A stretch of DNA of 64,000 nt from an uncultured delta proteobacterium (GCA_963803975.1 CAWDOY010000003.1:112446-176445), one strand, 5' to 3'; shown: positions 40,771-63,487, counted from the stretch's first letter. Notes: generated by a model not told the origin, from the letters alone. Numbers and translations: made by a program.

Positions 40771-40780
40771 GGAATACGCC

Positions 40781-43196: not shown

Positions 43197-43259
43197 GTTA
43201 AATACGGGCTAACAAGGCACCGTACACACAGGGCAACAGATACTATTCGTGGAGTATAC

Positions 43260-44327: not shown

Positions 44328-44449
44328 ACCGTTATGTAAATGCAATCGCCGGGCGATTAAGTCTGCGGCAGCCACAGCGTCGCTTCTTGAGAATTAAAGG
44401 GGCAGAGCCCAAAAGACTGCTTCGGTGAAGAATAATATGGAGATAGAAA

Positions 44450-45692
44450 ATGCCTTTAAAATCCTACGAGCACTGCTGTTCTTCCTGTATTGCTCTTGCT
44501 AATCTCGGAAAGATTGAGGGAGTGATACCCATCCTCCATGGACCGCAGGCCTGCGCCTTCGGCAATCAGATCGGCTCCATGTTCTGCCGGCCATCCCGGT
44601 TGCTGACCATTGGCACCACACTTAAAAAGAGTGAAGTTATTTTTGGCGGTGAAGATAAGCTCAAAGAACAGATTGTTAATGTCTATAAACAATACAAGCC
44701 CAAAATTATCGTGATTATTAACACCTGTGTTCCGCAGCTCATAGGCGAAGATTTAAAGGGAGTAATCATCGAGCTGAAGGAAGAACTGCCGGAGCTGAAG
44801 GTGACCTATTGTGAGACCGGATTCAATCAGCCAAAATCTACCCCACTGGGCAATGACGTATCATGGCGGGCGATTATTGACGTGCTGGAGCCCAGGGATA
44901 TGATCAAGGGCTCAGTGGGAATACTGGGGAGGGCAGGGCAGGATGCGGACAGCATGGGCTGTCTTGACGTCTCTGTTGCGGGAAGCGGGTATTACCACGT
45001 TTGCTTTTCCTGCCGGGCACCTTGAAGAAATGGAGAAGATTGTCCAGGCTGAGTATCTGTTCCCCATTCATTTAGTCCCCTATCTGACCAGCAAACGGAT
45101 TAATGAACGGTTTGGCTCAAAGACTGTTTATATTGAACTGCCGGTGGGGATTGCCGGGACTACCAATTTTCTACGCGGAGTTGCCGACCTGACAGGCAGC
45201 ATTAAACTTAAAGAAATTGCAGACCGTGAAGAAAAAAGATCATTGCCGCGATTAGAGAAAATAAGGGAGCAATTCAGACAGAAGCCAACAAAGGTTCTGT
45301 TAGTATCCGGGCCTGCCAATGAAACATCAATTGGGAAAATACTGGCTGAATTCGGAGCAGAAGTGATTATTGTGCCATCCATGCGCAATGCCTTTGCCCG
45401 CCAGGAGCAGGACATTTTGCAAAAGCGCTATGGCTCCCGCATTATCTTCCATGAAAATGACTTTAACAAAGTTTCAGACCTTGTAGGTTTATATAAGCCG
45501 GATGTTGTGTTTGGTGATTTCCAGGCACGCGTTGAGGTTATACGAAACCTTATCCCCTGTCTCATCAACGAGAACTATTTGAATGAATACGGCTATGATT
45601 ATGCCCTGGACTTTGGTGAAAACTTTTTTGAGAACTTGAAGCAGCCATTTTTTACCGAGTGGAAGGATATTATGCGTCAATACGCAGGATAG
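44450..45692 (+). CDS. nitrogenase component 1-type oxidoreductase, NifD/NifE/BchN-like (copy 1), one frameshift near 44960
   Basis: ALANLGKIEGVIPILHGPQACAFG; the second ORF 44943..45692 continues the fold. Confidence 0.7.
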
Positions 45693-45810: not shown

Positions 45811-47542
45811 ATGTCTGCAACTGACAGAAGAGATTTTATTGCTCCAGAAATAAAGATGAAGGAGATTCATAAGCCATCTTCTTTTGAAGGCGCTTTATGG
45901 GCCGCGCAGGGGATAACAGATGCCCGGGTGATTTATCATGCACCTCCCGGCTGCTATCTTATGCAGCACATGAACTCCATCTGCAATGAATGGCATCCTG
46001 AGATGTACAGCACGCTCATATCATACGCTGAAGTTATGCAGGGCACCGGGAAAAAGCTGGAGGAGGTGCTGGAAAAGGTTGTCGCTGAAAAGCCGCAGGC
46101 AATTATTATAATAACCTCACCGGTGATTGAGATTACCGGCGATGACGTTCAGGGTGCAGTCGCGGCTGCAGGATTCGAGAAGACGGTAATAATAAGACCA
46201 ACCCTGGGCGGCACACTCGCTGATGGAAAGGAAAAGGCATTTATCGCTCTGACCGGACTGATGAAGACAGACGAAGAGAAGCGGAAAAAGTCCGTCAATT
46301 TAATAGGGCCGACCTATAATACGTTCAACTGGCGGGCGGATGTATTTGAACTTAAAAGAATGCTCTCTGCCATCGGTATCTGCGTCAACGCTGTTTTAAC
46401 AGCTGACTGCACGGTTGATGAAATTATACATGCACCCCGGGCTGAACTAAATATATGCATGTATCCCTATGATTGCGGGATAGAATTTGCCAAGAAAATG
46501 CAGGAGCAGTTCAGCATACCGTATATTGCAAGCCATATTCCCCTTGGCTTCCGAGAATCAGCTGCATGGCTTGATGAAATTGCCCGGTTCTTTCTGATTG
46601 ATGCAAAGCAGTATATTGCACAGGAAATAAAAAGTGCCCGGGACTTTGTCACAACGCTTTTGGTAACCAACACCTTCTTTGAAGCAACGGCTGCCCTCTC
46701 AACTGACAACTGTGATACCTACAGCGTCGGGATAAGCAGTTTTCTGAAAAGAGAACTCGGCATGGATGTTTGCATGGCGTCGGTAGCAACTGATGAGGCA
46801 TTGGAAAAAGTGTCCCAGGTTTGCTCTACGGTACTATTAAATCCAAGCATTGATGAGAAAAAGTCGGTAATGCTGGAGAAATCCCCGACCATTATTCTCG
46901 GGAATTACTATGACCTCAAGCTTGCAACTGACCTGGGATTCAAGAACTTCCTGTTTGCGGATATCCCGCTTATCGGATACATCTTTTCAGAAACTACTCC
47001 ATTCATGGGCTTCATGGGTGCTAAGCATCTGGTGCAGGCCATGGGCAATGAGATTTATACCAAGATATTTATTGAGACCAAGGGGGAAATGGAAGGCGCC
47101 ATATCAGCAGGGGAGGTGCCGTGGGAACTCGATGCGGAGCGGGCGCTGGGAAGGATTGCTGAGATGCTCCCTCATTTTATACGTTCAATCGCGCTGAAGA
47201 AAATTCATCAAGTGGCAGATGAGACAGCCGTGCAAAAAAAATCTTCGGTCACGCTGGGGATCCTGCAGGAGGTCGCCACAAAATATACCCCGACGAGGTT
47301 TAAGTCAAAATATGCCACCATCTTTACGGATATAAAAGATACCCCGCTTGTTCCAGATGGCGCTGAGCAGACCGTGTTTCAGATGGAGTGGGATCAGGGC
47401 TGCTAAAGAGATGCTTGAGATGGTGCCCGATGAGTTCGTGGCAAAGGCGGTGAGGGAAACAGAAGGCTATGCCCGCGAGAACAATTATGGTCAAATAACT
47501 ACAGCGGTTGTCGAGGAATACCGGAAGAAGCTCGGCTTTTGA
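45811..47542 (+). CDS. nitrogenase component 1-type oxidoreductase, NifK/NifN/BchB-like (copy 1) with two C-terminal PCP_red-like domains; frameshift near 47395
   Basis: VIYHAPPGCY; PWELDAERALGRIAEMLPHFIRSIALKK; the last domain WSGIRAAKEMLEMVPDEFVAKAVRETEGYARENNYGQITTAVV is out of frame (ORF 47348..47542). Confidence 0.7.
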
Positions 47543-48656: not shown

Positions 48657-49157
48657 ATGAAGACAGGAAAGAAAATAATGAAAAATAAAAATGAAAACAT
48701 TAATTTAAAGGAAATTGAGGAGTTCGGAGATCATCTGCGCAATTGGAGAAATTTTTTCACTGAGTTTTTTAATAACGTAATAAAAGACAGCGGCAAAATA
48801 TCAGGCTTTGATTTCAGTATGTCACAGTTTAAGACCATGGGGGCCTTTCGGGAAGATACGGTCTATACCATGGGCGAGTTAAGTAAAAATGCTTCTGTTA
48901 CCATGCCGACCATGACTGAAATGATTGATAATCTGGAGCGGGAAGGAATTGCCGAGCGGATAAGGGATTCTCAGGATCGGAGGGTAGTAAAGGTACGTTT
49001 AACTGCAAAAGGAAAAAAGCTGCGCAAGAAATTCATGGATAAACGAAGGAATGAACTTAAAAACATACTCAGCAATCTGAGTAAAGAAGACCGGGGTGAG
49101 CTTATGAATGCGCTTGCCAAAGCGTACAGCGTACTGAAGAAAAACAGCACGGTATAA
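48657..49157 (+). CDS. MarR-family transcriptional regulator
   Basis: Winged HTH TMGELSKNASVTMPTMTEMIDNLEREGIAERIRDSQDRRVVKVRLTAKG. Confidence 0.7.
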   Translation: MKTGKKIMKNKNENINLKEIEEFGDHLRNWRNFFTEFFNNVIKDSGKISGFDFSMSQFKTMGAFREDTVYTMGELSKNASVTMPTMTEMIDNLEREGIAERIRDSQDRRVVKVRLTAKGKKLRKKFMDKRRNELKNILSNLSKEDRGELMNALAKAYSVLKKNSTV

Positions 49158-49192
49158 TACGGCCTGTAGAATAAACAGATAAGGAGAGGATT

Positions 49193-50438
49193 ATGCTTAA
49201 AAGCTATGAGCACTGCTGTTCTTCAATGCAGGCTTTGGCAACACTGGGGAAGGTGGAGGGAATCATTCCTTTGCTGCATGGACCGCAGCCATGCGCCTAT
49301 CAGATTCAGATAGGAACCATGACCTGCCGTCCATCACGCCTTCTTACCGCTGGTACTTTGATTAAGAAATCAGAGGTGGTCTTCGGCGGCGAAGAAAATT
49401 TAAAAAATCAAATAATCAATATGTACCGCCAGTATAAGCCAAAAATAATCGTAATCATCAATACGTGTCTTCCCCAGCTCATCGGCGAGGATATAAAAGG
49501 GGTAATCAGTGAAATAGAACTGGAACTGCCTGATTTAAAAGTGACCTATATTGACAGTGGATTCAATTTCCCTAAATGTATGCCTCTGGGAAACGATGTG
49601 GCGTGGGTATCGATCGTGAGACTGCTTGAAATAAAAGAGAAGGTAAAGGGATCAATTGGTCTGGTTGGAAGGTCAGGGCAGGATGCCGGAGCTTTTACAT
49701 CATTTGACACGTTTTTAAAGCGGGCAGGGATTACGGTATTCCCGTTTCCCGCTCCGCATCTGAATGAAATGGAAAAAATTGCATGTGCAGAAATTATATT
49801 CCCAGTCCATGTAGTACCGTTCCTGACCTGCAAAGAGATGAGCGAACGCTTCGGGTCAAGGGTAGAATATATTGAAATTCCTGCAGGTGTGCAGGGCACT
49901 ACAAATTTCCTGCGGGGGGTTGCTGATATCCTGAAAAACCAGAAGCTGCATGATCTGGTGGATACAGCAGGAGCAGGAAATGCGGCCCCGCATAGAAGCT
50001 ATAAAAGAGCGCTTTGCCAAAAACCCGATTAAAGTGATGTTTGCATTCGGGCCGGCAAGTGAGTTCGGGCTGAGCAAGATTATGGCTGACTTCGGAGCTG
50101 AGGTCATAATGATTCCTTCAATGAAAAATAAGTTCGCACAGCAGGAGAAAGAGCTGCAGAAGAAGCGATACAACGTGACTATTATTGAGGAAGATTTTGA
50201 TACCCTGGAGGATCTCTATGATCAGTACCGGCCGGATGCAGTGTTTTGTGAAACGCAGGGCCGGGTAGAACTTACCTCGCGGCTTATTCCAACATTTTGC
50301 AACATGACTTATTTAACTGCTTACGGATATGACTTTGCTCTGGATATGGGGGAAAAGTTCCATGAGAGTATGAAGCTCGATGTATTATCATCCTGGAGAG
50401 ATGTGGTTCAGAGATACGGAGGCGATCTCAATGCGTAG
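49193..50438 (+). CDS. nitrogenase component 1-type oxidoreductase, NifD/BchN-like (copy 2), one frameshift near 49990
   Basis: ALATLGKVEGIIPLLHGPQPCAY; paralog of 44450..45692. Confidence 0.7.
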
Positions 50439-52194
50439 TACTGAAGGCAAGGCAATGAAGCAGCTGGAACTGGCAGGCGCCCGCGAGCTGAAGATGAAGG
50501 AGATTCATAAGCCTTCAGCGTTTGAGGGGGCTTTGTGGACGGCTCTCGGTATAAAAGATGCGCGGGTTATTTACCACGCACCTCCCGGCTGCTACATCAG
50601 TCAGCATATGGATGCGCTGATGCATGAGTATCCGTTTGAATTATATACGACGTCACTTTCATATGCCAATGTTATGCAGGGTGCAGAGAACCAGCTCGAA
50701 GCAGTGTTGAGAAAAACCCTGGCACGAAAACCAAAACCGAAACTGGTAATCATTGTTACTTCTCCCAGTGTTGAAATAACCGGCGATGATGTGGAGGGGG
50801 TTGTAGAAAAAGTCGGAGATAAAAACTGTGTCGTAATAAGGCCCCCGATTGGCGGAAGCCTGCACGAGGGAAGGGAAAAGGCGTTAATAAGTCTGATAGA
50901 CATAATGGTTCCAGCTGTTGAAAAGATTGCTAAAACAGTTAATTTTATTGGTCCGACTTTTGATACCTTTAACTGGAGAGCTGACGCATTTGAGCTAAAA
51001 AGAATGCTTTCACGTATCGGCATCAAGGTTAATGCGGTACTGACCGGTGGATCACGAGTGAATGAAATTATTAACGCACCACGTGCTTTATTAAACCTCT
51101 GCTTGTATCCCTATGACTGCGGTATTGAGACGGCGCAGATCATGGAGAAGAAATTCGGCATTCCGTATCTTGCCGGCCATGTACCAATTGGTTTTAAAGA
51201 ATCTGCTGTCTGGCTTGAAGAAATTGCTGGCTTTTTCAAGGTGGACGCACGGGAATATCTTAAAGAAGAGACCGAAATGATATTTGAACTAATCCAGTCC
51301 TTTATGGTGCTGCCTATTACGTTTGAATGCTCTGCTGCTCTGTCGCTGGATAATAACGATACCTATGCAGTGGGCATAAGTCAATTTCTGAAAAAGGAAT
51401 TGGGAATGGAGCTCTCCATGGTGGCTGTAGGCAGTGATGCTGCAGGGGAAAAAGTAAAAGAAGTCTGCAGTAATGTTCTGGTAGAACCTACCATTGATGA
51501 AAAGAAGGAGCAGTTTATCGAAAAGGGCCCGATGATGATTATGGGCAACTTTTATGATTTAAAGATAGCCAAAGAACTTGGTTTTAATAACTTCCTCTTC
51601 GCTGATATTCCAACGCTGGGATACATTGCCACAGAGGCAAGCCCCTACATGGGTTTCCAGGGGGCAAGGAATTTGATTCAGCAGACGGGCAATCAGATTT
51701 ATATCAATTTTCTCATTGAGACCAAGGGCGGCATGGAAGAAGCCATCTCTTTGGGAGAAATTCCCTGGGACCTTGATGCACGGGAAGCGTTTGTAAAAGT
51801 CGCAGCCGTAATTCCGCATTTTATTAAAGCTACCGCCATGAGAAAGCTGCAGAAAAAAGCAGAAGAGCTTGCAGTTAAAAATGGCACGGGAATTACTATG
51901 GATATAATTAGAACGGTAACAGAACAGTACACGCCAACCAGGTTTAAATCAAAATTTTTATCTGCATTGCAGGGCGGTCAAGACGGAGAGCAACAGGGGG
52001 AATTTTCTGCAGAACTAACATTTACCATGGAATGGGATGCACCAGCCAGGGAATTGATGGAAAAGATTCCGCAGGAAGTTAAAACAATGGCAGTTGCAGG
52101 TACTGAGGAATTTGCAAGAGAGAAAGGCTACAAAAAAATAACAGTCGGCGTAGTGAATGAGTTCAAAGAAGAGGCCGGCATGGGGAAAAATTAA
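50380..52194 (+). CDS. nitrogenase component 1-type oxidoreductase, NifK/BchB-like (copy 2) with two C-terminal PCP_red-like domains, intact
   Basis: VIYHAPPGCYISQHM; IPWDLDAREAFVKVAAVIPHFIKATAMRKL; MEWDAPARELMEKIPQEVKTMAVAGTEEFAREKGYKKITVGVV. Confidence 0.75.
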   Translation: MYYHPGEMWFRDTEAISMRSTEGKAMKQLELAGARELKMKEIHKPSAFEGALWTALGIKDARVIYHAPPGCYISQHMDALMHEYPFELYTTSLSYANVMQGAENQLEAVLRKTLARKPKPKLVIIVTSPSVEITGDDVEGVVEKVGDKNCVVIRPPIGGSLHEGREKALISLIDIMVPAVEKIAKTVNFIGPTFDTFNWRADAFELKRMLSRIGIKVNAVLTGGSRVNEIINAPRALLNLCLYPYDCGIETAQIMEKKFGIPYLAGHVPIGFKESAVWLEEIAGFFKVDAREYLKEETEMIFELIQSFMVLPITFECSAALSLDNNDTYAVGISQFLKKELGMELSMVAVGSDAAGEKVKEVCSNVLVEPTIDEKKEQFIEKGPMMIMGNFYDLKIAKELGFNNFLFADIPTLGYIATEASPYMGFQGARNLIQQTGNQIYINFLIETKGGMEEAISLGEIPWDLDAREAFVKVAAVIPHFIKATAMRKLQKKAEELAVKNGTGITMDIIRTVTEQYTPTRFKSKFLSALQGGQDGEQQGEFSAELTFTMEWDAPARELMEKIPQEVKTMAVAGTEEFAREKGYKKITVGVVNEFKEEAGMGKN

Positions 52195-52299
52195 ACGAAA
52201 TGTTCTTAACAGAAAGGAGGCAAACATTTACGCAATAATAGCAGAAAATGAAAGCCAGAGAAAATTTAAAACTATGAAAAAATATGGAGGAGAATTGTT

Positions 52300-53239
52300 A
52301 TGAAAAAAACATTGTCAGTACTGTTTGCTTTTATATTTATGGTTAGTTCCGCCTCTATACTATTTGCTTCAGAAGCAAAAAAGGCAGCAACTGCAGGCGG
52401 CAAAGAAAAGATAGGTATTCTTATGGTTGCCCATGGAGAGCCGGAAACGTTTGATGCTCCGGTATGGGAAAAAGGCTTAAAACTGATGTTCAAAGAGTTT
52501 AAGGACTCCGGCATGGAAGTACCTACTGATGAAGCATTTCCGACAATCCTTGAAGAGATTAAGCATAAATATGAGGTTATGGGAGGTAAATCACGCCATG
52601 CCGAAATGTCACGATTGCAGTGCAAGCTTGTCTGCACAGAAGATGCCCGGCTATGATTTCCGTCTTGGCTTTATGGAGTTTATGGGGCCTGAATTTTCCG
52701 AAGTGGCAGAAGGGATGATTAAGGATGGAATTAAAAAGATAGTCTTTCTGCACATGCTGCAGACGGATTCCACACACACCGGAGAAATAAACAACAAGAT
52801 AAAAGAGATGAAGCTTGAGGAGCGGGGGATAAAATACGCAATCAGCAAGCCACTCTTCTACAGACCTGAACCTACGCAGCTCGTTATCGATAAAATTTTG
52901 AAAGCTACCGGGAATACGCCGTATGAGCAGGTCGGGGTTGTGCTTGCATCACACGGAGAACCTGAGGCCTGGGTTAAAGCGAATCTGTTAAATACAAAAT
53001 GCAAAGAGCAGGAGATTGCATTCTGTAACTGCGTAAAAAAGGGCTTAATTGAGAGAGGCTTTGTTTGGGAAAATATTACCCAGGGATTTAATGAATTCCA
53101 AAAACCGGAAATGCCCGAGGCGGTAGAGCTTATGGCTGAACGGAAAGCAAAGAAAGTGGTTGTCATCCCCAGCTTTGGCACTACTGAAGGAATGCATATC
53201 ACCTACGATATACCGACCAAAGCACGGACAGCTTGGTAG
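52300..53239 (+). CDS. secreted two-domain class II chelatase-fold protein (CbiX/CbiK/SirB-like); one frameshift
   Basis: Signal peptide; GILMVAHGEPE and VGVVLASHGEPE half-domains; VVVIPSFGTTEGMHITYDIP. Confidence 0.5.
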
Positions 53240-53339
53240 ATCCTTCAATAGAACTGGTTTATACCGGAGGATGGAACGATAACCCGCTTCTTATAAAAGC
53301 ATGGGTTGAGCTTGCAAAAGAGGCTTTGAAAAGGTTGTA

Positions 53340-53540
53340 GTGACTAACTATTTTAAAAGGATACTAAGCATGGCAAAAATAGATACAACTAAGTGTGTAG
53401 GATGCGGCGGGTGCATTGACCTCTGTCCAGTGATTGCGATTGCTATGATACAGGATGTGGTGACTGTAGATCAGGATATCTGTACAAAATGCGGCATCTG
53501 CATAAAAGTCTGTCCCGTGCGTGCACCTTACGAAGATTAG
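53340..53540 (+). CDS. 2[4Fe-4S] ferredoxin
   Basis: CVGCGGCIDLCP and CTKCGICIKVCP. Confidence 0.8.
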   Translation: MTNYFKRILSMAKIDTTKCVGCGGCIDLCPVIAIAMIQDVVTVDQDICTKCGICIKVCPVRAPYED

Positions 53541-53577
53541 CACGAATAATTAGACATTTTATAAAAGAGGATGCTAT

Positions 53578-54909
53578 ATGGCAAAAAAATATGATCTCGT
53601 GATAGTGGGCGCGGGCCCTGCAGGATTAATGGCTGGAAGAATCGCTGCTGAGAACGGCTTGAAGGTTGTCATTTTAGAGAGGAAAACAGATATCTGCAAG
53701 GTGAGAAGATTTGACGGCGGCGTGTTTGCTATCAATGAATACACCTTTGGCCAGCTCGCTTTGTATAACGAACGGGATAAGAGGGTCACTTTTCCTGTTG
53801 GCGGATTTTCCACTCGCTATGACGGCCCGTACACCAATGTTTTTGGCTTCCACCTTTATTCGCCGGGAGGAAAAAGGCTGCGGTTTGGTGACTGGACGAA
53901 ACTGAAGGACGATCCAATAAAAAACCGGGTAGCCATAGCGCTCAATAAAGAAATACTGTTAAAAAGCATGCTTGATGATTGTCTGGCAACGAGTGTTGAG
54001 GTGTTACCCAATGTAAATGTCACTGCCGTGAAAACCGGCGATAACCGGGTTACGGTAACCGGCAACGGCGAGGAGTATGAAGCACCGTTTCTGATAGCGG
54101 CAGATGGTTCTAATTCGAGGATTGCACGGCTTGCCGGTTTCAACAAAGAACGGGAGTTTTTTGCTACCTCGCGTCACATCGGTTATGAGGTTGAGGGAAT
54201 GGACTATGATGAATTAAACGGGTTTATCATAGCTCTCACCAAACATGGCTTCTACAGCATACTCCCTTATTTTGAAAAAGGGGTAAATCACATCGGGCAT
54301 CTTACCCATGACCCGTCAGTAGACCTGCATGCAACCATGCAATGGTTCATCAAGGAATCGCCGGTCTTTTCATCCTGGTTTAAAAAGGCCAAGGTGCGCG
54401 AAACAGGACTTACCGGATGTGTTGTGAATGTCTATAAGGCACTGGAAGACCCGTTTAAAGATAATGTGATACTGGTGTCTGATGCTGCCTGGATACAGGA
54501 GGTGAGCATTCCCTCGGCAATGTGTTTTGGCTGGAAGGCGGCAAATGCTGTTACGCTGGCTTTGCATGATGGAAAACCAAACCGTGAAGGAGTGCAAAGC
54601 TATCTTGATTGGTATGGCATTAATTTTTACCAGCCGCACGGCAACAGAAAAATGGTTGCAATTGAAATGCAGAAGTTTCTTGCAACCGAAGACCTTGATT
54701 ATCTGGCAGAGCTGCCGGGGAAGGTCTTTCGCCAGACCATGGATTTCCACTATCTGTTCCATATGCTCGGCGAGATATATGGCGGAGACGGGATGATAAA
54801 AATATCAGAAGAGCGTCCGGATATCATGGAAAAGCTTATTGATGCGCGGGGAAGTATGGCAGAAGCATCTGAGGAAAGACGCAAGATGGGTTTTCCCGGG
54901 AAAAAATAA
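53578..54909 (+). CDS. FAD-dependent oxidoreductase, geranylgeranyl reductase family
   Basis: YDLVIVGAGPAGLMAGRIAAENGLKVVILERK; ~440 aa; cognate ferredoxin directly upstream. Confidence 0.7.
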   Translation: MAKKYDLVIVGAGPAGLMAGRIAAENGLKVVILERKTDICKVRRFDGGVFAINEYTFGQLALYNERDKRVTFPVGGFSTRYDGPYTNVFGFHLYSPGGKRLRFGDWTKLKDDPIKNRVAIALNKEILLKSMLDDCLATSVEVLPNVNVTAVKTGDNRVTVTGNGEEYEAPFLIAADGSNSRIARLAGFNKEREFFATSRHIGYEVEGMDYDELNGFIIALTKHGFYSILPYFEKGVNHIGHLTHDPSVDLHATMQWFIKESPVFSSWFKKAKVRETGLTGCVVNVYKALEDPFKDNVILVSDAAWIQEVSIPSAMCFGWKAANAVTLALHDGKPNREGVQSYLDWYGINFYQPHGNRKMVAIEMQKFLATEDLDYLAELPGKVFRQTMDFHYLFHMLGEIYGGDGMIKISEERPDIMEKLIDARGSMAEASEERRKMGFPGKK

Positions 54910-54927
54910 TAAACAAAGGAGAAGAAC

Positions 54928-55743
54928 ATGAATAAAATCAGATTACCAATAATACCAGTTATAGTTGCAGCACTGATGTGCATGTGGGCATACGGCACCG
55001 TAGCCTACGCAGCCGCAGATATAAAAGCTTTGAAAACTAAAATAGACGATACCTGGGACAGTGGTGATTTTAAAGCATTTGAAAATCTGGAAAAGGAATT
55101 AACTTCACAGGTTAGCGATAAGGATGCTGATGGCTGTCTGGTGCTGGCTAAATTTTACTATTGGTATTCGATGCTCTATGCGGAAAAAGCAAATACTGAT
55201 AAAAAGCACTGGCTTGATGAGGAAAAGTATGCCGGCGATAAGGCACTGTGGGCTAAAGGCGGGGAGATGATTGATAAGGCCCTTGACTTAATTAAAAAGG
55301 CTGATGAAATGAGTCCGGGAAATCCCCAAATACTTCCTTATTATGCTGTAATCAAATATCGCAAGATACGCCATTGCGGCAACATGATATGTGCCATGCT
55401 GCATATGAAGAGCCTTTTGGATGTAACCCGGCTTACCATTGAGAAAGGCAAAAATGACGCAAGCGCCAATCTGGCTTATGGTATCTACAAGCTCGGCAGA
55501 TCACAGAAAATGGGAGGCAATCCCCGTGAAGCCATCAGCTATCTGCAGGTGGTTATAAAACTTGATCCCAACAGGGCCGAAGGATATTTCTGGTACGGTA
55601 AATTTTTCATGAGCCCGAATATAAAATTTCAACCTAAGCTTGCCCGTCCGAATTTTGAAAAGGCGGTTGCTCTTAATCCAAAAAACTGGCTGTATAAGGA
55701 AACGCTTGAACAATTTAACAAAGACTATCCTCCTGAAAAATAA
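54928..55743 (+). CDS. secreted hypothetical protein (helical/TPR-like)
   Basis: Signal peptide; 271 aa. Confidence 0.4.
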   Translation: MNKIRLPIIPVIVAALMCMWAYGTVAYAAADIKALKTKIDDTWDSGDFKAFENLEKELTSQVSDKDADGCLVLAKFYYWYSMLYAEKANTDKKHWLDEEKYAGDKALWAKGGEMIDKALDLIKKADEMSPGNPQILPYYAVIKYRKIRHCGNMICAMLHMKSLLDVTRLTIEKGKNDASANLAYGIYKLGRSQKMGGNPREAISYLQVVIKLDPNRAEGYFWYGKFFMSPNIKFQPKLARPNFEKAVALNPKNWLYKETLEQFNKDYPPEK

Positions 55744-55832
55744 AACAACAATAATTCTGCTATGGTTCGGGACCATCTTTAGTTTAGGCGGTTCCGAACC
55801 TTAATAAATTTAAATACACCAAGAGGTATAGC

Positions 55833-57272
55833 ATGAAAATTCTTAAAATAGTCCTACTATGTATAGTTGTTCTTGTTATCGCAGGGTATGGATTATACAA
55901 GTATAAAAACCTACCACAAAAACCCGATTATTATGAGTTCTATAAGAATCAGGATACCGTGCCTGAAGGGAAGATAGGGGTTCTGGTGGCCGGCTTGATC
56001 ATGCCGGAAAAGATCAGCCCGGTGTTTTTCAATAATGTAGCGAAAAAAATCTTTAAGACGATCGTTCCCTGGCCGGCCCGCAATTTTGTTACAGCAGATA
56101 AAGGGGTCGCTCTGCTTGATCCGGTTACGTTCCACTCTCATGAATCTTTTACGCCGACCAGTCTTATTGACCCTGATGGTAGCGACCGTGACATAGACGG
56201 AATGCCCTATATCGAGAAGTATAAGCAGGGACTGGTGAAATGGGTTCCCCCATCATCCATGCTCTATCTTGATCACGGCTATTTTCTCTACACCGGACGC
56301 AAGGGTGGCCAGCCAACTATTTGCGGGAAAATAATAAATAAATCCCGCATCTGGTATCACAATAAAGGCAGCCTCCAGCATGATCTTCCCCACTGGAAGC
56401 AGACCTTTAAGGTAATTGATGGTGCACATGAAAAGCTGAAGGAAAAATATGGAAATATTGAGTTCCGGGCTGAATGTAATATGTTTTATTATGAGCTGCG
56501 CGAAAAGCTCTATGAACTGCTCGATGCAGGATGCACTACGCTCGTGCTCAGCTCGCCTCTTCCCATGTACTCGCACTTTGAAGAATTTAACTCAGGTTTT
56601 CGCCACTGCTTTGAGTTTATTGAGGAGTGGGAAAAAGAACACCCCGGTAAGAAAATTAAGGTCATCATGGCGCCGCCCATGGGGCTCTATCAGCCCTATC
56701 GAAAGGCGTTTTTAGAAATGCTGAAAGACCGATTGGATACTTTGCCTAAAGATGCCAGCATTACGGTAGTGGTAAGTGTTCACGGCATGCCCTGGGATCT
56801 TTTCACATGGGAAGCATGGATACAGCTTGCTCCACCCTGGCGCGACAAGCTGTTTGAAGAAATCAAGGAGATGGTGGATTCATATAAATTTAAAAAGACT
56901 AATGTGGTAGCAGCACAGGATGAGTTTGCAGACCCGATCTGGGACCCAAAACAAAAATATCTTTCAACCAACCGCGCCTACTGGAATGCAATCAAGGAAG
57001 GATATGATTATGCGATTAATATCCCGATAGAATTTTATGGCGAAAACTCAGATACGATGTTTCACCATGCACTGAAAAACTATCACGGGTTTGATCAGTA
57101 TGATTTGTATAAGCCGATTGATTATCCTGACTGGTCGGTTCCTTTAACCAGAGAATTTGTACAAGGAAAAACCCGCATAATATATAATGGAGTGCCGGTA
57201 GGCAAATATCAAAAGTACGTAATTGAAGCATTTTACCAATCAATTGACTCCATTTTATCTAAGAAAAAATAA
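55833..57272 (+). CDS. membrane-anchored ferrochelatase-like (class II chelatase fold) protein
   Basis: N-terminal TM helix; KIGVLVAGLIMPEK and ITVVVSVHGMPWD resemble HemH signatures. Confidence 0.35.
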   Translation: MKILKIVLLCIVVLVIAGYGLYKYKNLPQKPDYYEFYKNQDTVPEGKIGVLVAGLIMPEKISPVFFNNVAKKIFKTIVPWPARNFVTADKGVALLDPVTFHSHESFTPTSLIDPDGSDRDIDGMPYIEKYKQGLVKWVPPSSMLYLDHGYFLYTGRKGGQPTICGKIINKSRIWYHNKGSLQHDLPHWKQTFKVIDGAHEKLKEKYGNIEFRAECNMFYYELREKLYELLDAGCTTLVLSSPLPMYSHFEEFNSGFRHCFEFIEEWEKEHPGKKIKVIMAPPMGLYQPYRKAFLEMLKDRLDTLPKDASITVVVSVHGMPWDLFTWEAWIQLAPPWRDKLFEEIKEMVDSYKFKKTNVVAAQDEFADPIWDPKQKYLSTNRAYWNAIKEGYDYAINIPIEFYGENSDTMFHHALKNYHGFDQYDLYKPIDYPDWSVPLTREFVQGKTRIIYNGVPVGKYQKYVIEAFYQSIDSILSKKK

Positions 57273-57407
57273 TTTGTTATTTGCCTGACTCGCAAGCAGG
57301 TTCAGACCTTGCCGCATAAGGATGGGTCTGAACCTGCTTGGAAAATTCAATCTGCAACACATAATATATCAACCAGCACTAAATGGGTCTTAACGGTGGA
57401 GAAATTA

Positions 57408-57995
57408 ATGGACATTTTAGCAATCTGTGGAAGTCCCAGAAAACATAAAACTACTCACAGCGTGCTGGAGGCGGTACTGTCTGGAGCAGGCAGGCCATAT
57501 GAAATACTGTGGCCTGCTTTTATGAAGATTGGCCACTGCATAAGCTGTCAAAAGTGTAAGTACAAAACACCTGGCGAATGCTGGCAGGACGATGACATGA
57601 AAGTGGCCATCGAAAAAATGTTTGCAGCCAGAGCGCTTATAATAGCATCTCCCACTTATTTTGGTAATGTACCAGGCCCCTTAAAGAACTTTATCGATAG
57701 AACCATCCCTACCTGCTATACCGGCAAGGGAGACACTTGGATGGGAGCAGAGAACCACGGGAAACGGCCTTTTAAGGGGCAACTCGGCATGATTGTTGTC
57801 GTGTCGGGTGGTGCTGACCAGGAGAAAACAGCAGCTAATCTGCGCCTGGTATTTGATTATTATGAATATGCTGTGATTGGAGAATTTGCCGAGAGCATGG
57901 GTGGGATTATTGTCAGCAAACAAGAATACCCGGATATCTATACCAGGCTTTTTGCTCTTGGCAAAATACTTGATGAAGCCCTGAAAACAAGGTAA
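57408..57995 (+). CDS. iron-sulfur flavoprotein (Isf)/NADPH-dependent FMN reductase family
   Basis: MDILAICGSPRK plus compact CISCQKCKYKTPGEC motif. Confidence 0.65.
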   Translation: MDILAICGSPRKHKTTHSVLEAVLSGAGRPYEILWPAFMKIGHCISCQKCKYKTPGECWQDDDMKVAIEKMFAARALIIASPTYFGNVPGPLKNFIDRTIPTCYTGKGDTWMGAENHGKRPFKGQLGMIVVVSGGADQEKTAANLRLVFDYYEYAVIGEFAESMGGIIVSKQEYPDIYTRLFALGKILDEALKTR

Positions 57996-58004
57996 TATAC
58001 GAAC

Positions 58005-59117
58005 ATGACAATAGAAGGGATAAATTCCAAAACAGGGATAATCATGATTGGCCATGGAGAGCCGGAAGTCTTTGAAGAAGAACTGTGGGCTGAAGCGCTG
58101 CATGAAATGTTTGAGGAGTTAAAGAGAACCGGTATCGAAGCTCCTTCTGATGAAGCCATTCCCCTGATGCTGCCCATAATAGAGGGAAAATATGCAGCCA
58201 TAGGGGGCAGATCAAGACATAATGAGATCATTGGCAAGCAAAGCGAACTAATAGCCCGGACGTTGCATGAACACGTAGTCAGTTATGGATTCAATGAATT
58301 CACCAGCCCGCATTTTACGGCCGTTACCGAGCAGATGATACGTGAAGGAATAACCAGGATGGTGTTTGTTCCCATGCTGATGACAGATTCCTCGCATACG
58401 CAGGAGATAAAAAATAAAATTGAATGCATGAATCTGCAAGAACAGGGTGTTACCTGGGTTATGAGTAAGCCACTCTTTTATAGACCGGAACCAATACAAC
58501 TGGTAATAAATAAAATTATGCGAGCTGCGGGAAACATTCCGCCAGATAAAACAGGCATACTACTCGTTTCCCATGGAGAACCGGATCAGTGGGCTTTATC
58601 GTCCACTATACATACCAAATGCAATGAGCAGGAGAAAGCGTTTGCTTTGAGTGTAAAAAAGGGGCTTATTGAGAGAGGCTTCCCAGGGGAGAATATCGTG
58701 CGGGCATTTAATGAATTCACCCATCCTGAAATAGCAGAAGCGGCTGAAGGACTGGCGCATAAAAAAGTCAAAAAGATTATTGCCGCAGCCACCTTTGGCA
58801 ATACTGACTGTATCCATGTAAACTATGACATACCGGCAAAACTAATAGAATCTATTGATAACGCAGCCGTAGAGATTGTTTGTCTTGATGGGTGGAATGA
58901 AGATCCTCTGCTGATTACCGCATATTGCGAACTGATCAAGGAATCGCTGCTACTGCTATCTGAAAACCAGATTGAAGGTTGCTACCTGTCGAAGGGGGGT
59001 AGCAGCGTCTGCAGTCAGAATGCAAACAATCATTACAGAGCAATAATAAAGCGTCTGGCTGCTGCTCGCATAGGGGCACATGTCTCTTTATCCCTGACCA
59101 TAGAGCCGTACGACTAA
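58005..59117 (+). CDS. two-domain class II chelatase-fold protein (paralog of 52300..53239) with extra C-terminal domain
   Basis: GIIMIGHGEPE and GILLVSHGEPD; alignable over ~300 aa to the 52300 protein. Confidence 0.5.
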   Translation: MTIEGINSKTGIIMIGHGEPEVFEEELWAEALHEMFEELKRTGIEAPSDEAIPLMLPIIEGKYAAIGGRSRHNEIIGKQSELIARTLHEHVVSYGFNEFTSPHFTAVTEQMIREGITRMVFVPMLMTDSSHTQEIKNKIECMNLQEQGVTWVMSKPLFYRPEPIQLVINKIMRAAGNIPPDKTGILLVSHGEPDQWALSSTIHTKCNEQEKAFALSVKKGLIERGFPGENIVRAFNEFTHPEIAEAAEGLAHKKVKKIIAAATFGNTDCIHVNYDIPAKLIESIDNAAVEIVCLDGWNEDPLLITAYCELIKESLLLLSENQIEGCYLSKGGSSVCSQNANNHYRAIIKRLAAARIGAHVSLSLTIEPYD

Positions 59118-59842
59118 AAAATTACCTGAGATACGCATATTTCATCCGGCAGAGGAACGCTTCTTCCCATGGTATCCTCCCCGTAATTAACTTCAGCAAG
59201 CAGCTTGAGATCGTGGAGTGTTTTTTTATCTCCCCGGAACTCAACTGCCGTGATACCCTCCTTTTTTATGATTCCAGCAGCCCACATCATGTCAATGACA
59301 CTCGCGGCATCGAACTCTTTATTGCTTACTACCATGGTTGTTTTAGTGCCGTAGTTGTTTACTGCTTTAGCCACAAGGGTTGATGGTCTAAGATGAAAGC
59401 CAAGTCCCTGGGGTACATTAAGCGTGATGGAATCAACAACGGTATATTTTGTGACAATAGATTCAGCCAGCGTCAGGCCGTCTTTTATAAACAGGGTGTA
59501 GTAATAAAGAGCAAAATTAATAATGGTATTGAGCACTTCTTTTCTGCTGACAATTTTTTCAATGCGCTTCATGGTGCTTTCAGCCCGCACTTTGGTTTCA
59601 TGCCGTTCAACAAAATGACAGAGGCCCTGGGCGATTTCCAGAAAATGGAGGGTAATGGAAATATAGCCGCGTAAACTTTTCAGCGATTCGTCCTTCAATT
59701 CAACCGGCGTTTTATGAATATAGGTATCATACATTGACTGCAGACTGTGCATTTTAGCTTCGATATGACGCAGGATGTCTTCATTGATTTTTGCCGGTAT
59801 GAGTTTTTCTATATTTTTATCAGTGATTTTTTTCTCGAACAA
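59114..59842 (-). CDS. HPr-domain (phosphocarrier-like) protein with N-terminal helical domain
   Basis: C-terminal GLGFHLRPSTLVAKAV...TAVEFRGDKKTLHDLKLLAEV HPr-like fold. Confidence 0.5.
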   Translation of the reverse strand: MFEKKITDKNIEKLIPAKINEDILRHIEAKMHSLQSMYDTYIHKTPVELKDESLKSLRGYISITLHFLEIAQGLCHFVERHETKVRAESTMKRIEKIVSRKEVLNTIINFALYYYTLFIKDGLTLAESIVTKYTVVDSITLNVPQGLGFHLRPSTLVAKAVNNYGTKTTMVVSNKEFDAASVIDMMWAAGIIKKEGITAVEFRGDKKTLHDLKLLAEVNYGEDTMGRSVPLPDEICVSQVIF

Positions 59843-59928
59843 TAAGATGTTCCGAAGCTTTTATAACGGCAAGAAATTCAGCGGCAACGCGGGTAACATT
59901 TTCATTAATTTCATGCACCGTCTCCTCG

Positions 59929-60426
59929 TCAATCGTGTGGGGCAGGATCTTTAACGATCAGATTTTCTTCCACATCTTCTTCATTAAGCACGCAGGATGG
60001 GATGCTCAAGTGGTTAAATAGTTCAGCCTCTTTTTTAAGACTGGAAAAGAGGGATATGATGGACTCATTCAGGAACTGCACTATCAACTGGGCATCCTGA
60101 ATAAAGGAAGTCTCATGTTTATTGTTCAGGCGGTACAGAGTGATGCGGCGCAGTATATGGCTGATTATATAGGCAACGTTTGCAAAGTTGCGGATAGAAG
60201 CGACAAGTTCACCAAAATAGACCCAGGTTTTGTTGTTGCGCGCCCCATGGTCATCGAGCAGGTCTTCTAAATCCGTTGCTTCCTTAATCAGTATCCCATA
60301 CAGCTTTTTGTTGAGCTTGTGGGTATTATCAAGCAAACAGGATGACAGAATAAGCATTTTACGGGCTGCTTTTTGTGCAATGCCCAGAAACTCTTCTTCC
60401 TTTATTATTTCAAGCAGTGATTCCAT
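59929..60426 (-). CDS. hypothetical protein, possibly the 5' part of the HPr-domain gene
   Basis: 165-aa helical ORF separated by 86 bp and a frame change from 59114..59842. Confidence 0.3.
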   Translation of the reverse strand: MESLLEIIKEEEFLGIAQKAARKMLILSSCLLDNTHKLNKKLYGILIKEATDLEDLLDDHGARNNKTWVYFGELVASIRNFANVAYIISHILRRITLYRLNNKHETSFIQDAQLIVQFLNESIISLFSSLKKEAELFNHLSIPSCVLNEEDVEENLIVKDPAPHD

Positions 60427-60466
60427 ATTTCCCCTGTTTGTGTCTCAAGACCAATGGTAGATGGTT

Positions 60467-62186
60467 CTAATCGTTAATGGTATCAGGCTCCTGGCTCATG
60501 AAAATGTGAAAAGGCCAGGGGATAAGGGCCGCATTCAGCTCTAAGGAATCATCAACCGCAGGGTTGATATTTTTTCTTATACAGGGAAGATAGCCGGGCG
60601 CTGCAATAGTAATGTCAGTTTTGCAGACCGGAAGATCCAAAGTATAGAATCCCTCTGTATCTGTTTTAGAAAGCGCACCATAGCCGGTGCTGACGACAAC
60701 AGCTTCAATTGGCTTCCCGGTAAAGATATTGTGTACTGCTCCGTGAACAGTTCCCATGCCAGCAGCTTCAAGTAAAACATCCTGCTCCAGTATGTTATCA
60801 CCAGACACGACAATATCAGCTTGTGCTCCGGAGAGGTAACAAGGGTGCGACACGTTGACGGTATGGCTGCCGGGCTCTATATCTTTCAGCATATATCTGC
60901 CATCAGAAGAGCTGATGCAGGAAACTGCAGGATCTTCCTTCAGGGTTACTATGGCCCCCTTAATGCCACAGCCGTTATGGCGGTCCCGGATGAAACCTGA
61001 AATAATTCCCAGAGGCTGCATTGAAAAATTGAGAGTGGTCACCGTCCCCTTGCCTATTGATACGGATTTCAATATTGGCAGCAAACCCTGCCGTGAGGCA
61101 AACAGGGTCAGTCGTACAGATGCTCGAGTATAATTTATAGGTTCCGTCTTGAGTGCTGAAACTGGCTGCGCCATTATCCGCCTCTACGCGCACACCCGAT
61201 AGCGGAGCTCCGGTATCACGATTGGTAATTAACCCCCGGATGAGTCCGGTACCATTTGTTGTGGGGATGAGAGAGAAATCATAGGTTTTTACAGAAAAAG
61301 GGCTGAGAAAAAAGGTTTGACTGCTGAACTGATAACCATCAGCGCTGACGATCAGGGTAGACAGTCCAAGAGGGGTATCTATGGAATAGAATCCATCACT
61401 GCTTGCGGAGATTTCGCCGGCATTTGAAATAATAATAGCGTCATTTATCCGTATGCCGGTGCAGGCATCCTTGATGATACCTTTAACCGCGATGCGAGCA
61501 GCAGGAGCTGTATTGAGTTCAACATTAAGATTGGTTGTAACATAGGGGTATAGGGGATATTTTTTAACTTGTTTACTGGTAAACCCGTCTGCAGAAAAAG
61601 TAATGGTAACCACGCCTGAGGGGGAAGGCAACCTGAAACTGCCGTCCCTGCCGCTTGAAATGGTTGCGCCGCCAAGGTCCGTTGTGATCAGTGCCCCCTG
61701 AATACCCTCTCCGTTAGAAGAGCGAACTATATGACCCTCAACATAGCCAACCGGGGTGGAAGCGGGTGTAATGCCGAAATCGACCTGTGCAATGTTTCCG
61801 GGAGTAGCGGGAATACCTGATAAGAGATTTGCCGAAGAGTCAGGCGCAGTTGCGATTAACGTATAGATGCTGGGAGGAACGCGTAACACATACGCCCCGT
61901 TTGACGAGGCGGTTGAAACTCCATTTGCCGTTGTAATGGTTGCACCGGTTACCAGCGTACTGCTAAACGTGTTAAATATGGTGCCTTTGATAAATGCGGG
62001 CTGAATAGCATGTGCGGGGATAGCTGAAAAGGGCAGAGAAAACAGAGAGAACAGTAAAAGCGCAAGTATCATAACTGCCGGAATGCAGTTCGACGGTGGG
62101 GTGCTTCTATTTTTCAACAAAAACCCGGTGTCCACTAAAGGGCAGTAGATCGCCTGCCTTAAGATTATATTTTCTGATAATTTCAT
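60467..62186 (-). CDS. secreted protein with tandem carboxypeptidase-regulatory-like domains; one frameshift
   Basis: Signal peptide; 5-6 CarbopepD_reg-like repeats (e.g. GLITNRDTGAPLSGVRVEADNGAASFSTQDGTYKL); ORFs overlap 60975-61174. Confidence 0.5.
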
Positions 62187-62427
62187 TATCGAGCGATACT
62201 TTTTCCCCGCTGATGGTGATATAATATTTACGCATCGGTATTACCATCGCTTTACGAGCGGGCTTTTTTGATGGCTTTTTTATTGCTCTGACCTGTTTTT
62301 TTACCGGTTTCTGCTTTGTCTTGGTTTTGGCTGCTGCGGCAGTGCTGCTTTTTTGCCTGGTGCGAACCTTGCGCTGTACCTTGGTGCGACGGGAGATCAG
62401 AGACTTACTTTTTTTTGCTTTCATCAA
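62107..62427 (-). CDS. AbrB/MazE/SpoVT-type DNA-binding domain protein with Lys/Ala-rich N-terminal tail
   Basis: C-terminal YYITISGEKVSLDNEIIRKYNLKAGDLLPF swapped-hairpin pattern; histone-like basic tail. Confidence 0.4.
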   Translation of the reverse strand: MMKAKKSKSLISRRTKVQRKVRTRQKSSTAAAAKTKTKQKPVKKQVRAIKKPSKKPARKAMVIPMRKYYITISGEKVSLDNEIIRKYNLKAGDLLPFSGHRVFVEK

Positions 62428-62665
62428 CTGGTTTCTGTTTTAACCTTTTCAGTAGATTAATCGGCTTGTGAATAATCTCACATTCCTCTAATTTGTTTTG
62501 CCCGTCAGGCAAAAGACCGGAAATATCTTTTACATATTTTTCCTGTTCTGCTAATTCCATATGCTCAACTAAACGTTTATCCTTTATATCCATGGCAACT
62601 CATTCCTCTCCCAAATTACTGTATGGCGGGGTTTCAAGACATTTTATTTTAAAAAACCATTATGG

Positions 62666-63046
62666 TTATGAAACACCGCTTATCAGGGAATCCCGTATCT
62701 GCAGGATCTCTTCCTTTATCTCTTTTAATACCTCCCGGTATTTATGCGGTACAAAGCCGAGGGGTAACTGTTTCTCTTTATCTTTCTCTTTCTCGTGAAT
62801 GTTTGAATCTTTCAGTTTTAGCTTTGCCCCGGCAATGGTAAACTTATCCTCATAGAGCATTTTTTTTATTTTTAGAATTGATTCAACGTCTTTTTTACGG
62901 TACAGGCGCTGATTTGATTTTGTCCGGTATGGTTTCACTAACTTGAATTCTGATTCCCAATAGCGCAAAATGTACGGCTCAACCCCGGTAATCTTGCACA
63001 CTTCGCCTATTTTAAAGTAGAGCTTATCGGGAATTACTGCTACCAT
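62666..63046 (-). CDS. MerR-family transcriptional regulator
   Basis: [28 protein letters not shown]; follows ihfA, which is conserved synteny. Confidence 0.7.
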
Positions 63047-63186
63047 GATATGTCTGCTCCCGGCGTTTCGTATCTGACTTAGTTATCTTTATATAAATTA
63101 TTAACTAAGTGCAAGGAAATTATAACAATAATTAGAATTTATATGCAGCTTTATGGTAACGCTGCTAAATAAAAAATAAAGTTATA

Positions 63187-63462
63187 TTATCTATTTAGGT
63201 ATTTCTTGAGTACCGGGCTTGCCTTAAAAGTAAGCACACTGCGCGCTGAAATGGCGATCTCTTCCCCGGTCTGCGGGTTTCTGCCCCGTCTCACCTTCTT
63301 TGAACGAACATTAAAATTTCCAAACCCTGATATTTTTACCTTATCGCCGTGCTCAAGGGAAGATCGGATAATTTCAAAAATAAGCTCAACAATCATTGTT
63401 GATTCCTTTTTGGAAAGCCCCACCTTTTCATAAATGTTTGCAATTAAATCTGCCTTGGTCAT
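63187..63462 (-). CDS. ihfA: integration host factor subunit alpha
   Basis: GFGNFNVRSKKVRRGRNPQTGEEIAISARSVLTFK. Confidence 0.8.
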   Translation of the reverse strand: MTKADLIANIYEKVGLSKKESTMIVELIFEIIRSSLEHGDKVKISGFGNFNVRSKKVRRGRNPQTGEEIAISARSVLTFKASPVLKKYLNR

Positions 63463-63487
63463 AAATCAGTGCCCTCCTTGAAATGTG

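Follow-up and report, generated by a model that had tools for sequence, protein, structure and literature searches.

A 64,000-nucleotide stretch of DNA from an uncultured delta proteobacterium, a relative of sulfate reducers (GCA_963803975.1, CAWDOY010000003.1:112446-176445; the whole of this stretch is referred to here as the window) carries three chelatase-fold genes, all on the plus strand and within positions 52300-59117. They are termed gene 1, gene 2 and gene 3. Genes 1 and 3 belong to a rare, uncharacterised variant of the class II chelatases in which a His-Glu-His triad is retained in both halves of a single chain, and they are accompanied by nitrogenase-like genes. The reading preferred here, with a probability of about 60%, is that their products insert a metal into a tetrapyrrole, or take one out of it, without ATP, that the adjacent reductases act on the same tetrapyrrole, and that gene 2 is part of a separate module.

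52300..53340, plus strand: gene 1, predicted exported member of the rare dual-triad chelatase family (from open reading frame pieces, contig L012, Pfam and hydropathy)
55833..57272, plus strand: gene 2, 479 amino acids (aa), ferrochelatase-like, with an N-terminal transmembrane helix (from Pfam, AlphaFold2 and Foldseek)
58005..59117, plus strand: gene 3, predicted cytoplasmic paralog of gene 1, with its authentic end at the TAG of 59000-59002 (332 aa) (from Pfam, AlphaFold2 and Foldseek)

A preliminary description of this region gave gene 1 as 52300-53239. That interval is 940 nt long and holds more than one reading frame. The gene is listed as three open reading frame (ORF) pieces, 52300-52656 (118 aa), 52529-53239 (236 aa) and 53233-53340 (35 aa), which lie in frames 1, 2 and 1. 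When two single-nucleotide shifts are bridged, the true span is 52300-53340 and the product is 346 aa long and collinear with the 370-aa product of 58005-59117. The gene is found intact, at 346 aa, in the metagenome contig used as reference (L012; ENA ERZ25039459 contig_111696, 16.9 kb), where gene 3 encodes 332 aa.

Fold, paralogy and candidate metal ligands

At the level of protein families, reconstructed gene 1 scores 64.8 bits with CbiX (PF01903; cut-off 22 bits) and 56.9 bits with full-length Ferrochelatase (PF00762; cut-off 27 bits), and the corresponding scores of gene 3 are 61.1 and 57.6 bits. Each half of either protein exceeds the CbiX cut-off, and the N-terminal and C-terminal halves also match each other within these proteins (E 3e-6). 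The gene 1 product, taken from the intact L012 copy, is 49% identical to that of gene 3 over 314 residues (E 7e-116). A single-sequence search for solved chelatases with gene 3 gives a best E of ~0.03.

AlphaFold2 models were built from family alignments, that of gene 3 over residues 1-329 (pLDDT 89.6, pTM 0.87). A Foldseek search of the Protein Data Bank (PDB) with this model has B. subtilis HemH as the top match (1doz; E 2.6e-14, TM-scores 0.70/0.74, probability 1.00), followed by human and yeast ferrochelatase and Listeria CpfC and then by SirB; the TM-scores with ferrochelatases are 0.70-0.76. The fold is that of the class II chelatases, two Rossmann-like alpha/beta domains with a central cleft, and gene 1 is covered by this result because of its 49% identity to gene 3. 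The gene 2 model (pLDDT 94.8, pTM 0.91) has HemH first (1ak1; E 7.6e-10, target TM-score 0.65) and human FECH next, with a probability of 1.00 and target TM-scores of 0.61-0.73 for its ferrochelatase matches. Periplasmic CbiK (2xvz, 2xvx) and P. gingivalis FetB (9b86) stand lower in the gene 2 list but are significant. The class II chelatase fold proposed in the preliminary description, whose absence had been named beforehand as the refuting outcome, is therefore present in both models.

Gene 2 differs from the other two genes in its degree of relatedness. Its Pfam Ferrochelatase score is 26.3 bits, just below the cut-off. Compared with gene 3 by BLASTP, it gives an E of 0.024 confined to the HG(M/E)P...(D/N)EF stretch, and a profile-profile comparison with the gene 1/3 family gives a probability of 11.9%, although the motif pairs in it are sensible ones (TDSsH/YSHFEEF, SHGEP/VHGMPW and NEF/DEF). 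On these two values, gene 2 was rejected as a close paralog of the other two genes. Since this similarity is so slight when set against the 49% shared by genes 1 and 3, sequence comparison points to two true paralogs and one distant superfamily relative. The earlier statement that all three are paralogous holds for the first pair and fails for gene 2.

Six residues, H17, E98, H131, H190, E237 and H271, are invariant in an alignment of 32 gene 1/3-family sequences. They constitute two His-Glu-His triads, H17/E98/H131 in the N-terminal half and H190/E237/H271 in the C-terminal half, and reside in the motifs HGEPE, NEF, TDSxHTxE, HGEP(D/E), NEF and TDxxHxxYDIP. HGEP(E/D) is thus present twice and invariant in the family, in agreement with the two HGEPE half-domains first noticed in gene 1, and the conserved His/Glu metal ligands that were to be looked for are represented by six invariant candidates.

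Alignment to proteins of known structure shows which ligands these may be. The family profile places 'SHGEPD' on HemH 'SAHSLPEK', so that H190 is equivalent to HemH His183, and 'YEALGGKS' on HemH 'YEAIGGISPL', with the YxxxGGxS motif kept. H131 pairs with the His of SirB 'AAH' and with that of CfbA 'GIH'. In the C-half profile, H271 falls on CfbA His75, E237 on CfbA Glu42 and, weakly, H190 on CfbA His9; the residue of human ferrochelatase that corresponds to H271 is Glu343 of 'SDHIETL'. The CfbA/CbiX/SirB triad (His9/Glu42/His75) is accordingly found in both halves of genes 1 and 3. Of the ferrochelatase catalytic pair (B. subtilis H183 and E264, human E343) the His is present and the Glu has become His271. 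From their alignment to CfbA, SirB and HemH ligands, the conserved His/Glu residues are predicted to line the cleft. Because of these alignments and the fold matches, the products of genes 1 and 3 look like a ferrochelatase-like scaffold with CfbA/CbiX/CbiK-like chemistry in both halves.

The homodimeric CbiX-S and CfbA enzymes have two symmetric sites. Fused class II chelatases retain one of these, in the N-terminal half in CbiX-L and SirB and in the C-terminal half in CbiK and HemH. By comparison with what is generally known of those families, a fused chain that retains both triads is unusual among class II chelatases.

In gene 2 the first triad His of the N-terminal half is a Leu ('GLIMPE'). 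Within the gene 2 family H248, H317, E364, E400, E404 and D407 are invariant and H412 is almost so. PDB sequence searches with gene 2 or with its family profile found no chelatase, and the mapping of its residues is tentative for this reason.

The gene 1/3 family is very rare. It has 32 matching clusters among 5.8 billion proteins, and an exhaustive hidden Markov model (HMM) search of 1.84 billion representatives gave 20 at E<=1e-30, about six of them of the core family. A survey of 185,579 species genomes gave six loci. Wherever a source is named, it is an uncultured one, either of the Thermodesulfobacteriota or among the Lake Pavin 'Proteobacteria' metagenome-assembled genomes (MAGs), and literature searches found no account of this cluster or family. 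The next tier in the HMM search (P0157-P0300; L083 1644-2963) is a sister family of ~410 aa with three or four N-terminal transmembrane helices, a dual HG(E/Q)P domain and the same His/Glu motifs. It is larger and appears to be uncharacterised as well.

The three proteins also vary in their N-terminal signals. The gene 1 product begins with MKKTLSVLFAFIFMVSSASILFA, followed by SEAKK; it has MKK as n-region, a hydrophobic core at aa 3-26 and a predicted cleavage between LFA and SE. Signal-bearing orthologs (P0027-P0029) have VAA, WAA or MAA before the cleavage and E after it. Hydropathy and motif inspection, on which the export calls rest, reveal neither a twin-arginine motif nor a lipobox Cys, and the signal fits Sec export. 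Gene 1 is therefore predicted to combine a cleavable export signal with a chelatase fold in the manner of periplasmic CbiK, and the analogy drawn earlier with that protein is a reasonable one for this gene. Gene 3 shows no hydrophobic segment, and gene 2 has a single N-terminal transmembrane helix at aa 3-21. These properties match the different localisation signals originally described, as well as the description of 55833-57272 as membrane-anchored and ferrochelatase-like. The gene 2 family has on average 3.6 K/R in the 15 residues after the helix versus 1.0 before it, and 35 of 38 sequences agree. The positive-inside rule thus predicts a globular domain on the cytoplasmic side, tethered to the membrane, and disfavours a periplasmic orientation of gene 2.

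The nitrogenase-like cluster and proposed function

The genes that precede and separate the three chelatase-fold genes are the following.

44450..45692, plus strand: BchN-like copy 1, split by a frameshift into two ORFs, both with Pfam Oxidored_nitro
45811..47406, plus strand: BchB/BchZ-like copy 1 (Pfam; NCBIfam BchB 136 and BchZ 131 bits)
48657..49157, plus strand: MarR-family regulator (NCBIfam), which precedes the cluster in all related loci
49193..50438, plus strand: BchN-like copy 2 (Pfam), split by +1 nt at ~49966; intact at 414 aa in L012
50380..52194, plus strand: BchB/BchZ-like copy 2 (Pfam), with a PCP_red C-terminal domain
53370..53540, plus strand: 2x[4Fe-4S] ferredoxin (Pfam), conserved in position
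53578..54909, plus strand: geranylgeranyl (GG)-reductase-family flavoprotein (NCBIfam GG-red-SF, 75 bits; cut-off 158.8)
54928..55743, plus strand: TPR protein (Pfam, synteny)

Related loci have these gene orders, where H, N and B stand for NifH-like, BchN-like and BchB-like genes.

L006: MarR, H, H, N, B, ferredoxin, GG-reductase-like, chelatase, TPR, MarR
L003: N, B, minus-strand ORF, MarR, N, B, ferredoxin, GG-reductase-like, chelatase, TPR
L001: N, B, chelatase
L009: MarR, H, H, N, B, MarR, N, chelatase, chelatase, FeoB, Fe_bilin_red-family (Pfam 40.5 bits)
L008 (same MAG as L009): MarR, exported chelatase, GG-reductase-like, TPR

Every gene 1/3-family locus with enough flanking sequence has BchN/BchB-like genes adjoining or in the same MAG; nitrogenase-like synteny was observed in L001, L003, L006, L009 and L012. 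For this family, the earlier statement that the chelatase genes lie beside nitrogenase-like genes is upheld. The conserved order is MarR, two NifH-like genes in some loci, BchN-like, BchB/Z-like, ferredoxin, GG-reductase-like flavoprotein, chelatase and TPR protein, and the window displays the L003 pattern plus the exported paralog and a block of gene 2, an FMN_red gene and gene 3. Of all neighbours of gene 1/3-type chelatases, the GG-reductase-like flavoprotein is the one most regularly present, and it also recurs beside gene 2 homologs. Intact ~412-aa orthologs of BchN-like copy 1 are present in L001 and L003. The TPR protein of the window has a signal-peptide-like N-terminus (AYA before and AAD after the cleavage point), and its orthologs in L003 and L008 begin without such a signal. 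Ferredoxin-dependent bilin-reductase-family genes (PF05996) recur in MAGs of anaerobes beside both chelatase-like families, in L009 (12057-14813), L013, L014 and L083, and no haem oxygenase was seen in these four loci.

Both BchB-like copies have HAPPGC where ChlB has HAPLGD (alignment to 2xdq_B), which puts a Cys at the position of the cluster ligand Asp36. BchZ carries a Cys at this position of ChlB (PMC13474568). The equivalog cut-offs are missed by the subunits (BchB 136-156 bits versus 490, BchZ 114-131 versus 529, and BchN likewise at a third or less), and by sequence the nitrogenase-like subunits are assigned to a separate DPOR/COR-related clade. A 2026 review that covers groups IV-A to F, V and VI describes nothing resembling this cluster (PMC13474568). 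The nitrogenase-like clusters of Elusimicrobia (group VI) are of another kind, with an abundance of radical-SAM genes and no mention of a chelatase.

The analysis shows the fold, the conserved residues, the paralogy, the rarity, the synteny, the N-terminal signals and the indels; as to catalysis, substrate, metal and the biosynthetic or catabolic direction, we infer the following scheme. The products of genes 1 and 3 would bind a tetrapyrrole in the inter-domain cleft and would insert a divalent metal into it, or remove it, without ATP. The DPOR/COR-like reductases would reduce C=C bonds of the same macrocycle with electrons derived from ferredoxin. The exported gene 1 copy might catalyse the same metal insertion or removal in the periplasm, or serve there as a binding chaperone. 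Gene 2 would participate in a membrane-anchored, cytoplasm-facing handling of tetrapyrrole together with the FMN_red flavoprotein, independently of genes 1 and 3.

Several observations weigh against this scheme. In genes 1 and 3 another residue stands in place of the catalytic Glu of ferrochelatase, and the shortfall from the NCBIfam HemH and CfbA equivalog cut-offs is wide: TIGR00109 (hemH, cut-off 124.6) gives 46.8, 42.5 and 26.0 bits for genes 1, 3 and 2, and F430_CfbA (cut-off 120) gives 55.4 and 61.2 bits for genes 1 and 3. Neither chelatase family has any characterised member. The gene 2 residue mapping comes from a low-confidence profile alignment, with H317, E364 and H248 conserved. 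The known exported chelatase-fold proteins, CbiK-P and FetB, may be binders and not enzymes. In addition, gene 1 is frameshifted as sequenced in the window, genes for methyltransferase, amidase and radical-SAM tailoring are absent from the cluster, and a tblastn search for NifH-like sequences found none in the 64-kb window, the sole match being the P-loop of an unrelated ATPase at 3964-4740.

A role in salvage or catabolism is a possible, if less than probable, explanation of the same genes. Here the exported copy would capture a tetrapyrrole from outside the cell, for instance haem or a product of (bacterio)chlorophyll breakdown in anoxic lake sediment, the cytoplasmic copy would strip the metal, and the ATP-driven nitrogenase-like enzymes and the flavoproteins would reduce the macrocycle for degradation or iron recovery. 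This explanation carries real weight because an exported paralog occurs with an exported TPR protein, because MarR regulators, typical of substrate-responsive operons, stand before every cluster, because the cluster has reductases and chelatases only and lacks tailoring enzymes, and because the chelatase pair of L009 is followed by FeoB and by a gene of the Fe_bilin_red family, which includes RCCR. The Fe_bilin_red and PNPOx-like genes that adjoin gene 2 homologs, and the patchy distribution, also fit it. However, the cluster has no conserved transporter, ring-opening enzyme or hydrolase, class II chelatases normally insert metal, and we know of no anaerobic porphyrin degradation by nitrogenase-like enzymes.

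It is rather unlikely that these proteins, or at least that of gene 1, are non-catalytic carriers or chaperones for tetrapyrrole or metal, as has been proposed for periplasmic CbiK and FetB. The latter two are among the significant Foldseek matches, and with its Sec signal gene 1 would acquire any ligand outside the cytoplasm. Nevertheless, every member, whether exported or cytoplasmic, keeps all six triad residues, which suits catalysis better than mere binding, and the best structural matches are enzymes.

Integrity of the genes and the context of gene 2

The sequence of L012 was compared with window positions 49171-64000. Identity over these 14.8 kb is 98.98%, and 139 mismatches and 11 gap openings were counted; ten of the 11 gap openings fall inside genes, and at least seven genes are split. 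The indels that bear on the cluster are as follows, as window relative to L012.

~49966: +1 nt, breaks the second BchN-like gene
~52634: +1 nt, interrupts gene 1 for the first time
~53232: -1 nt, interrupts gene 1 again
after 58990: -1 nt, the TAG of 59000-59002 is no longer read in frame and gene 3 gains 38 unconserved aa

With frames restored, synonymous and nonsynonymous substitutions relative to L012 number 6/0 in gene 1, 1/0 in gene 2 and 1/0 in gene 3. Unrelated genes of the window are fragmented as well (type I restriction-modification, Ppx/GppA, AsmA, a 432-aa gene and a CarboxypepD_reg gene). Since L012 is intact, the substitutions are mostly synonymous and unrelated genes are split too, the indels are probably assembly errors, resembling long-read consensus error. 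Programmed frameshifting in gene 1 was ruled out, because the two changes are plain +1 and -1 indels and both are missing from the 99%-identical L012. Further indel-rich parts of the window are 31276-33216 and 38065-43053. An Rfam scan of the window gave zero matches.

The ~90-aa C-terminal extension previously ascribed to gene 3 is an artefact, produced in part by comparison with a truncated gene 1 and in part by the 38-aa tail that follows from the single-nucleotide deletion. Among the 13 members of the 90% cluster of gene 3, a length of 370 aa is found in the window copy only, and the other members that are not fragments have 312, 325 or 332 aa. A true C-terminal domain was dismissed accordingly.

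Perhaps the frameshifts are real, and the cluster is decaying in this strain, with gene 1, gene 3, both BchN-like genes and neighbours as pseudogenes and the NifH-like genes lost. The density of gap openings within genes, the lack of a NifH-like gene in 64 kb and an 11-kb mobile-element insertion immediately upstream would be in keeping with decay. Yet the substitutions are overwhelmingly synonymous, and housekeeping-type and type I restriction-modification genes that are unrelated to the cluster are split in the way expected of consensus error. As to the NifH-like genes, two lie directly upstream of the BchN-like gene in L012 (1-1921), L006 and L009, and homology between the window and L012 ends at window position 49171, 22 nt before the start codon of BchN-like copy 2. 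L003, however, shares the window arrangement: its N-like gene comes immediately after the MarR gene, and a NifH-like gene is lacking in between. L003 is from a different genus, and for this reason the MarR/N-like adjacency is not a recent deletion. Decay is thus considered improbable.

The mobile-element-like insertion, of ~11 kb, occupies window positions 33200-44400 between AsmA and the nitrogenase-like cluster; in L001 and L003, AsmA directly adjoins the cluster. It contains an IS transposase gene (34659-36149), ORF6N-like genes (36219-36614 and 37614-38039), a type I restriction-modification system (38065-43053, GC ~0.6) and a RhuM-family gene (43812-44327). Elsewhere in the window, a Cys-rich motif (CPADYPIDCGNGYCCPSDYPVCG and variants) is found in three otherwise unlike ORFs, at 10154-10765 (minus strand), 11304-13232 (plus strand) and 14700-15248 (plus strand), one of which encodes a large putative secreted protease-like protein.

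Gene 2 belongs to a family with more than 352 matches at ~60% identity and ~480 aa in length. It is paired in the window with the following gene.

57309..57995, plus strand: FMN_red-family flavoprotein (Pfam)

Homologs of gene 2 were surveyed at 83 loci, 30 of them of at least 10 kb, and the identities of the neighbouring families were confirmed by Pfam. Neighbours were present in these numbers of loci.

nitrogenase-like gene: 0/83
MntP-like: 13/83
PadR-family regulator: 12/83
FMN_red-like: 11/83
GG-reductase-like flavoprotein: 10/83
Fe_bilin_red-family: 9/83
PNPOx-like: 5/83

A link of gene 2 to nitrogenase-like genes was therefore dismissed, and the association claimed in the preliminary description does not extend to it. 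Elsewhere the gene 2/FMN_red module travels with bilin-reductase-family, GG-reductase-like and PNPOx-like genes. In one locus (L083), a gene 2 homolog occurs with a member of the 410-aa transmembrane sister family, with FMN_red and with a bilin-reductase-like gene. Because of these neighbours, gene 2 and the FMN_red gene look like an independent tetrapyrrole-related module which in this lineage has come to lie within the cluster.

It is very unlikely that the housekeeping protoporphyrin or coproporphyrin ferrochelatase is among the three, gene 2 being the most plausible candidate for it: the homologs are annotated at source as 'protoheme ferro-lyase', the best fold matches are ferrochelatases and the protein is membrane-associated, as ferrochelatases commonly are, but the hemH score is 26 bits against 124.6, PDB ferrochelatases are undetectable by sequence even with the family profile, the neighbours are flavoproteins and bilin-reductase-family genes and not haem-biosynthesis genes, and some contigs have two copies.

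Significance and comparison with known systems

Nitrogenase-like enzymes that lack an assigned function are a standing problem in the field, and genomic context has so far been of little help to function (PMC13474568). The DPOR/COR-like clade described here occurs consistently with a class II chelatase family dedicated to it, with a ferredoxin and a GG-reductase-like flavoprotein, and with a MarR regulator. The gene 1/3 family with its nitrogenase-like partners is thus a testable candidate for an anaerobic tetrapyrrole pathway not yet recognised; about eight genes make up a compact and defined set, which is expressible and can be assayed on a few tetrapyrroles and metals.

Tentatively, this might be an anaerobic pathway of Desulfobacterota that leads to a new reduced metallo-cofactor or to an ATP-driven reductive breakdown of macrocycles, with the chelatase as a 'living intermediate' on both sides of the membrane. 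The cofactor would then be chlorin- or bacteriochlorin-like, and breakdown or demetallation would have haem- or chlorophyll-derived macrocycles as targets. The chelatase would be a fused two-domain protein that still bears both ancestral CfbA-type triads and is found on both sides of the inner membrane. The family is of evolutionary interest because both pseudo-symmetric sites are kept, which are lost in other fused class II chelatases. The presence of exported and cytoplasmic paralogs with identical catalytic residues raises the question of whether tetrapyrroles are metallated or demetallated outside the cytoplasm.

With regard to gene context, the closest parallels are DPOR (BchLNB) and COR (BchXYZ) with BchP, and the F430 cluster CfbA-E, in which a chelatase occurs with nitrogenase-like tetrapyrrole reductases. 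The two N/B pairs, the two NifH-like genes in related loci and the GG-reductase-family flavoprotein resemble DPOR, COR and BchP, and the Cys of the present B-like subunits at the ChlB Asp36 position resembles that of COR BchZ. In contrast to DPOR and COR, the present subunits miss the equivalog cut-offs threefold or more, and the host anaerobes are non-phototrophic. The Bch pathway differs further in that it uses the Mg-chelatase BchHID, whereas the chelatase here is of class II, and in its Bch tailoring genes, which are absent here. CfbB/CfbE-type genes of the F430 cluster are likewise absent.

CbiK-P of Desulfovibrio vulgaris and FetB of Porphyromonas gingivalis resemble gene 1 in that they are exported proteins of class II chelatase fold from anaerobes. 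They rank far below the ferrochelatases for the gene 2 model, and their sequence similarity is undetectable. Moreover, gene 1 is paralogous to a cytoplasmic protein in a nitrogenase-like cluster and is not in a cobalamin or haem-uptake locus.

HemH, CpfC and human FECH (PF00762) are the best structural matches of both models, and genes 1 and 3 share with them a full-length Pfam match, the YxxxGGxS motif and the SAHSLP His (H190). Unlike these enzymes, to which they are only 15-21% identical, genes 1 and 3 have His271 in place of the Glu (E343) and retain a second triad in the N-terminal half. Gene 2 differs from the ferrochelatases in being ~170 residues longer and in having an N-terminal transmembrane anchor.

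The CfbA/CbiX-S, CbiX-L and SirB proteins (PF01903) are related to genes 1 and 3 through the triads, which align residue by residue with His9/Glu42/His75 of M. jannaschii CfbA. CfbA, however, is a homodimer of 120-140 aa, and in SirB and CbiX-L the site is in one half only, whereas the gene 1/3 family has a single fused chain of 310-346 aa with the site in both halves.

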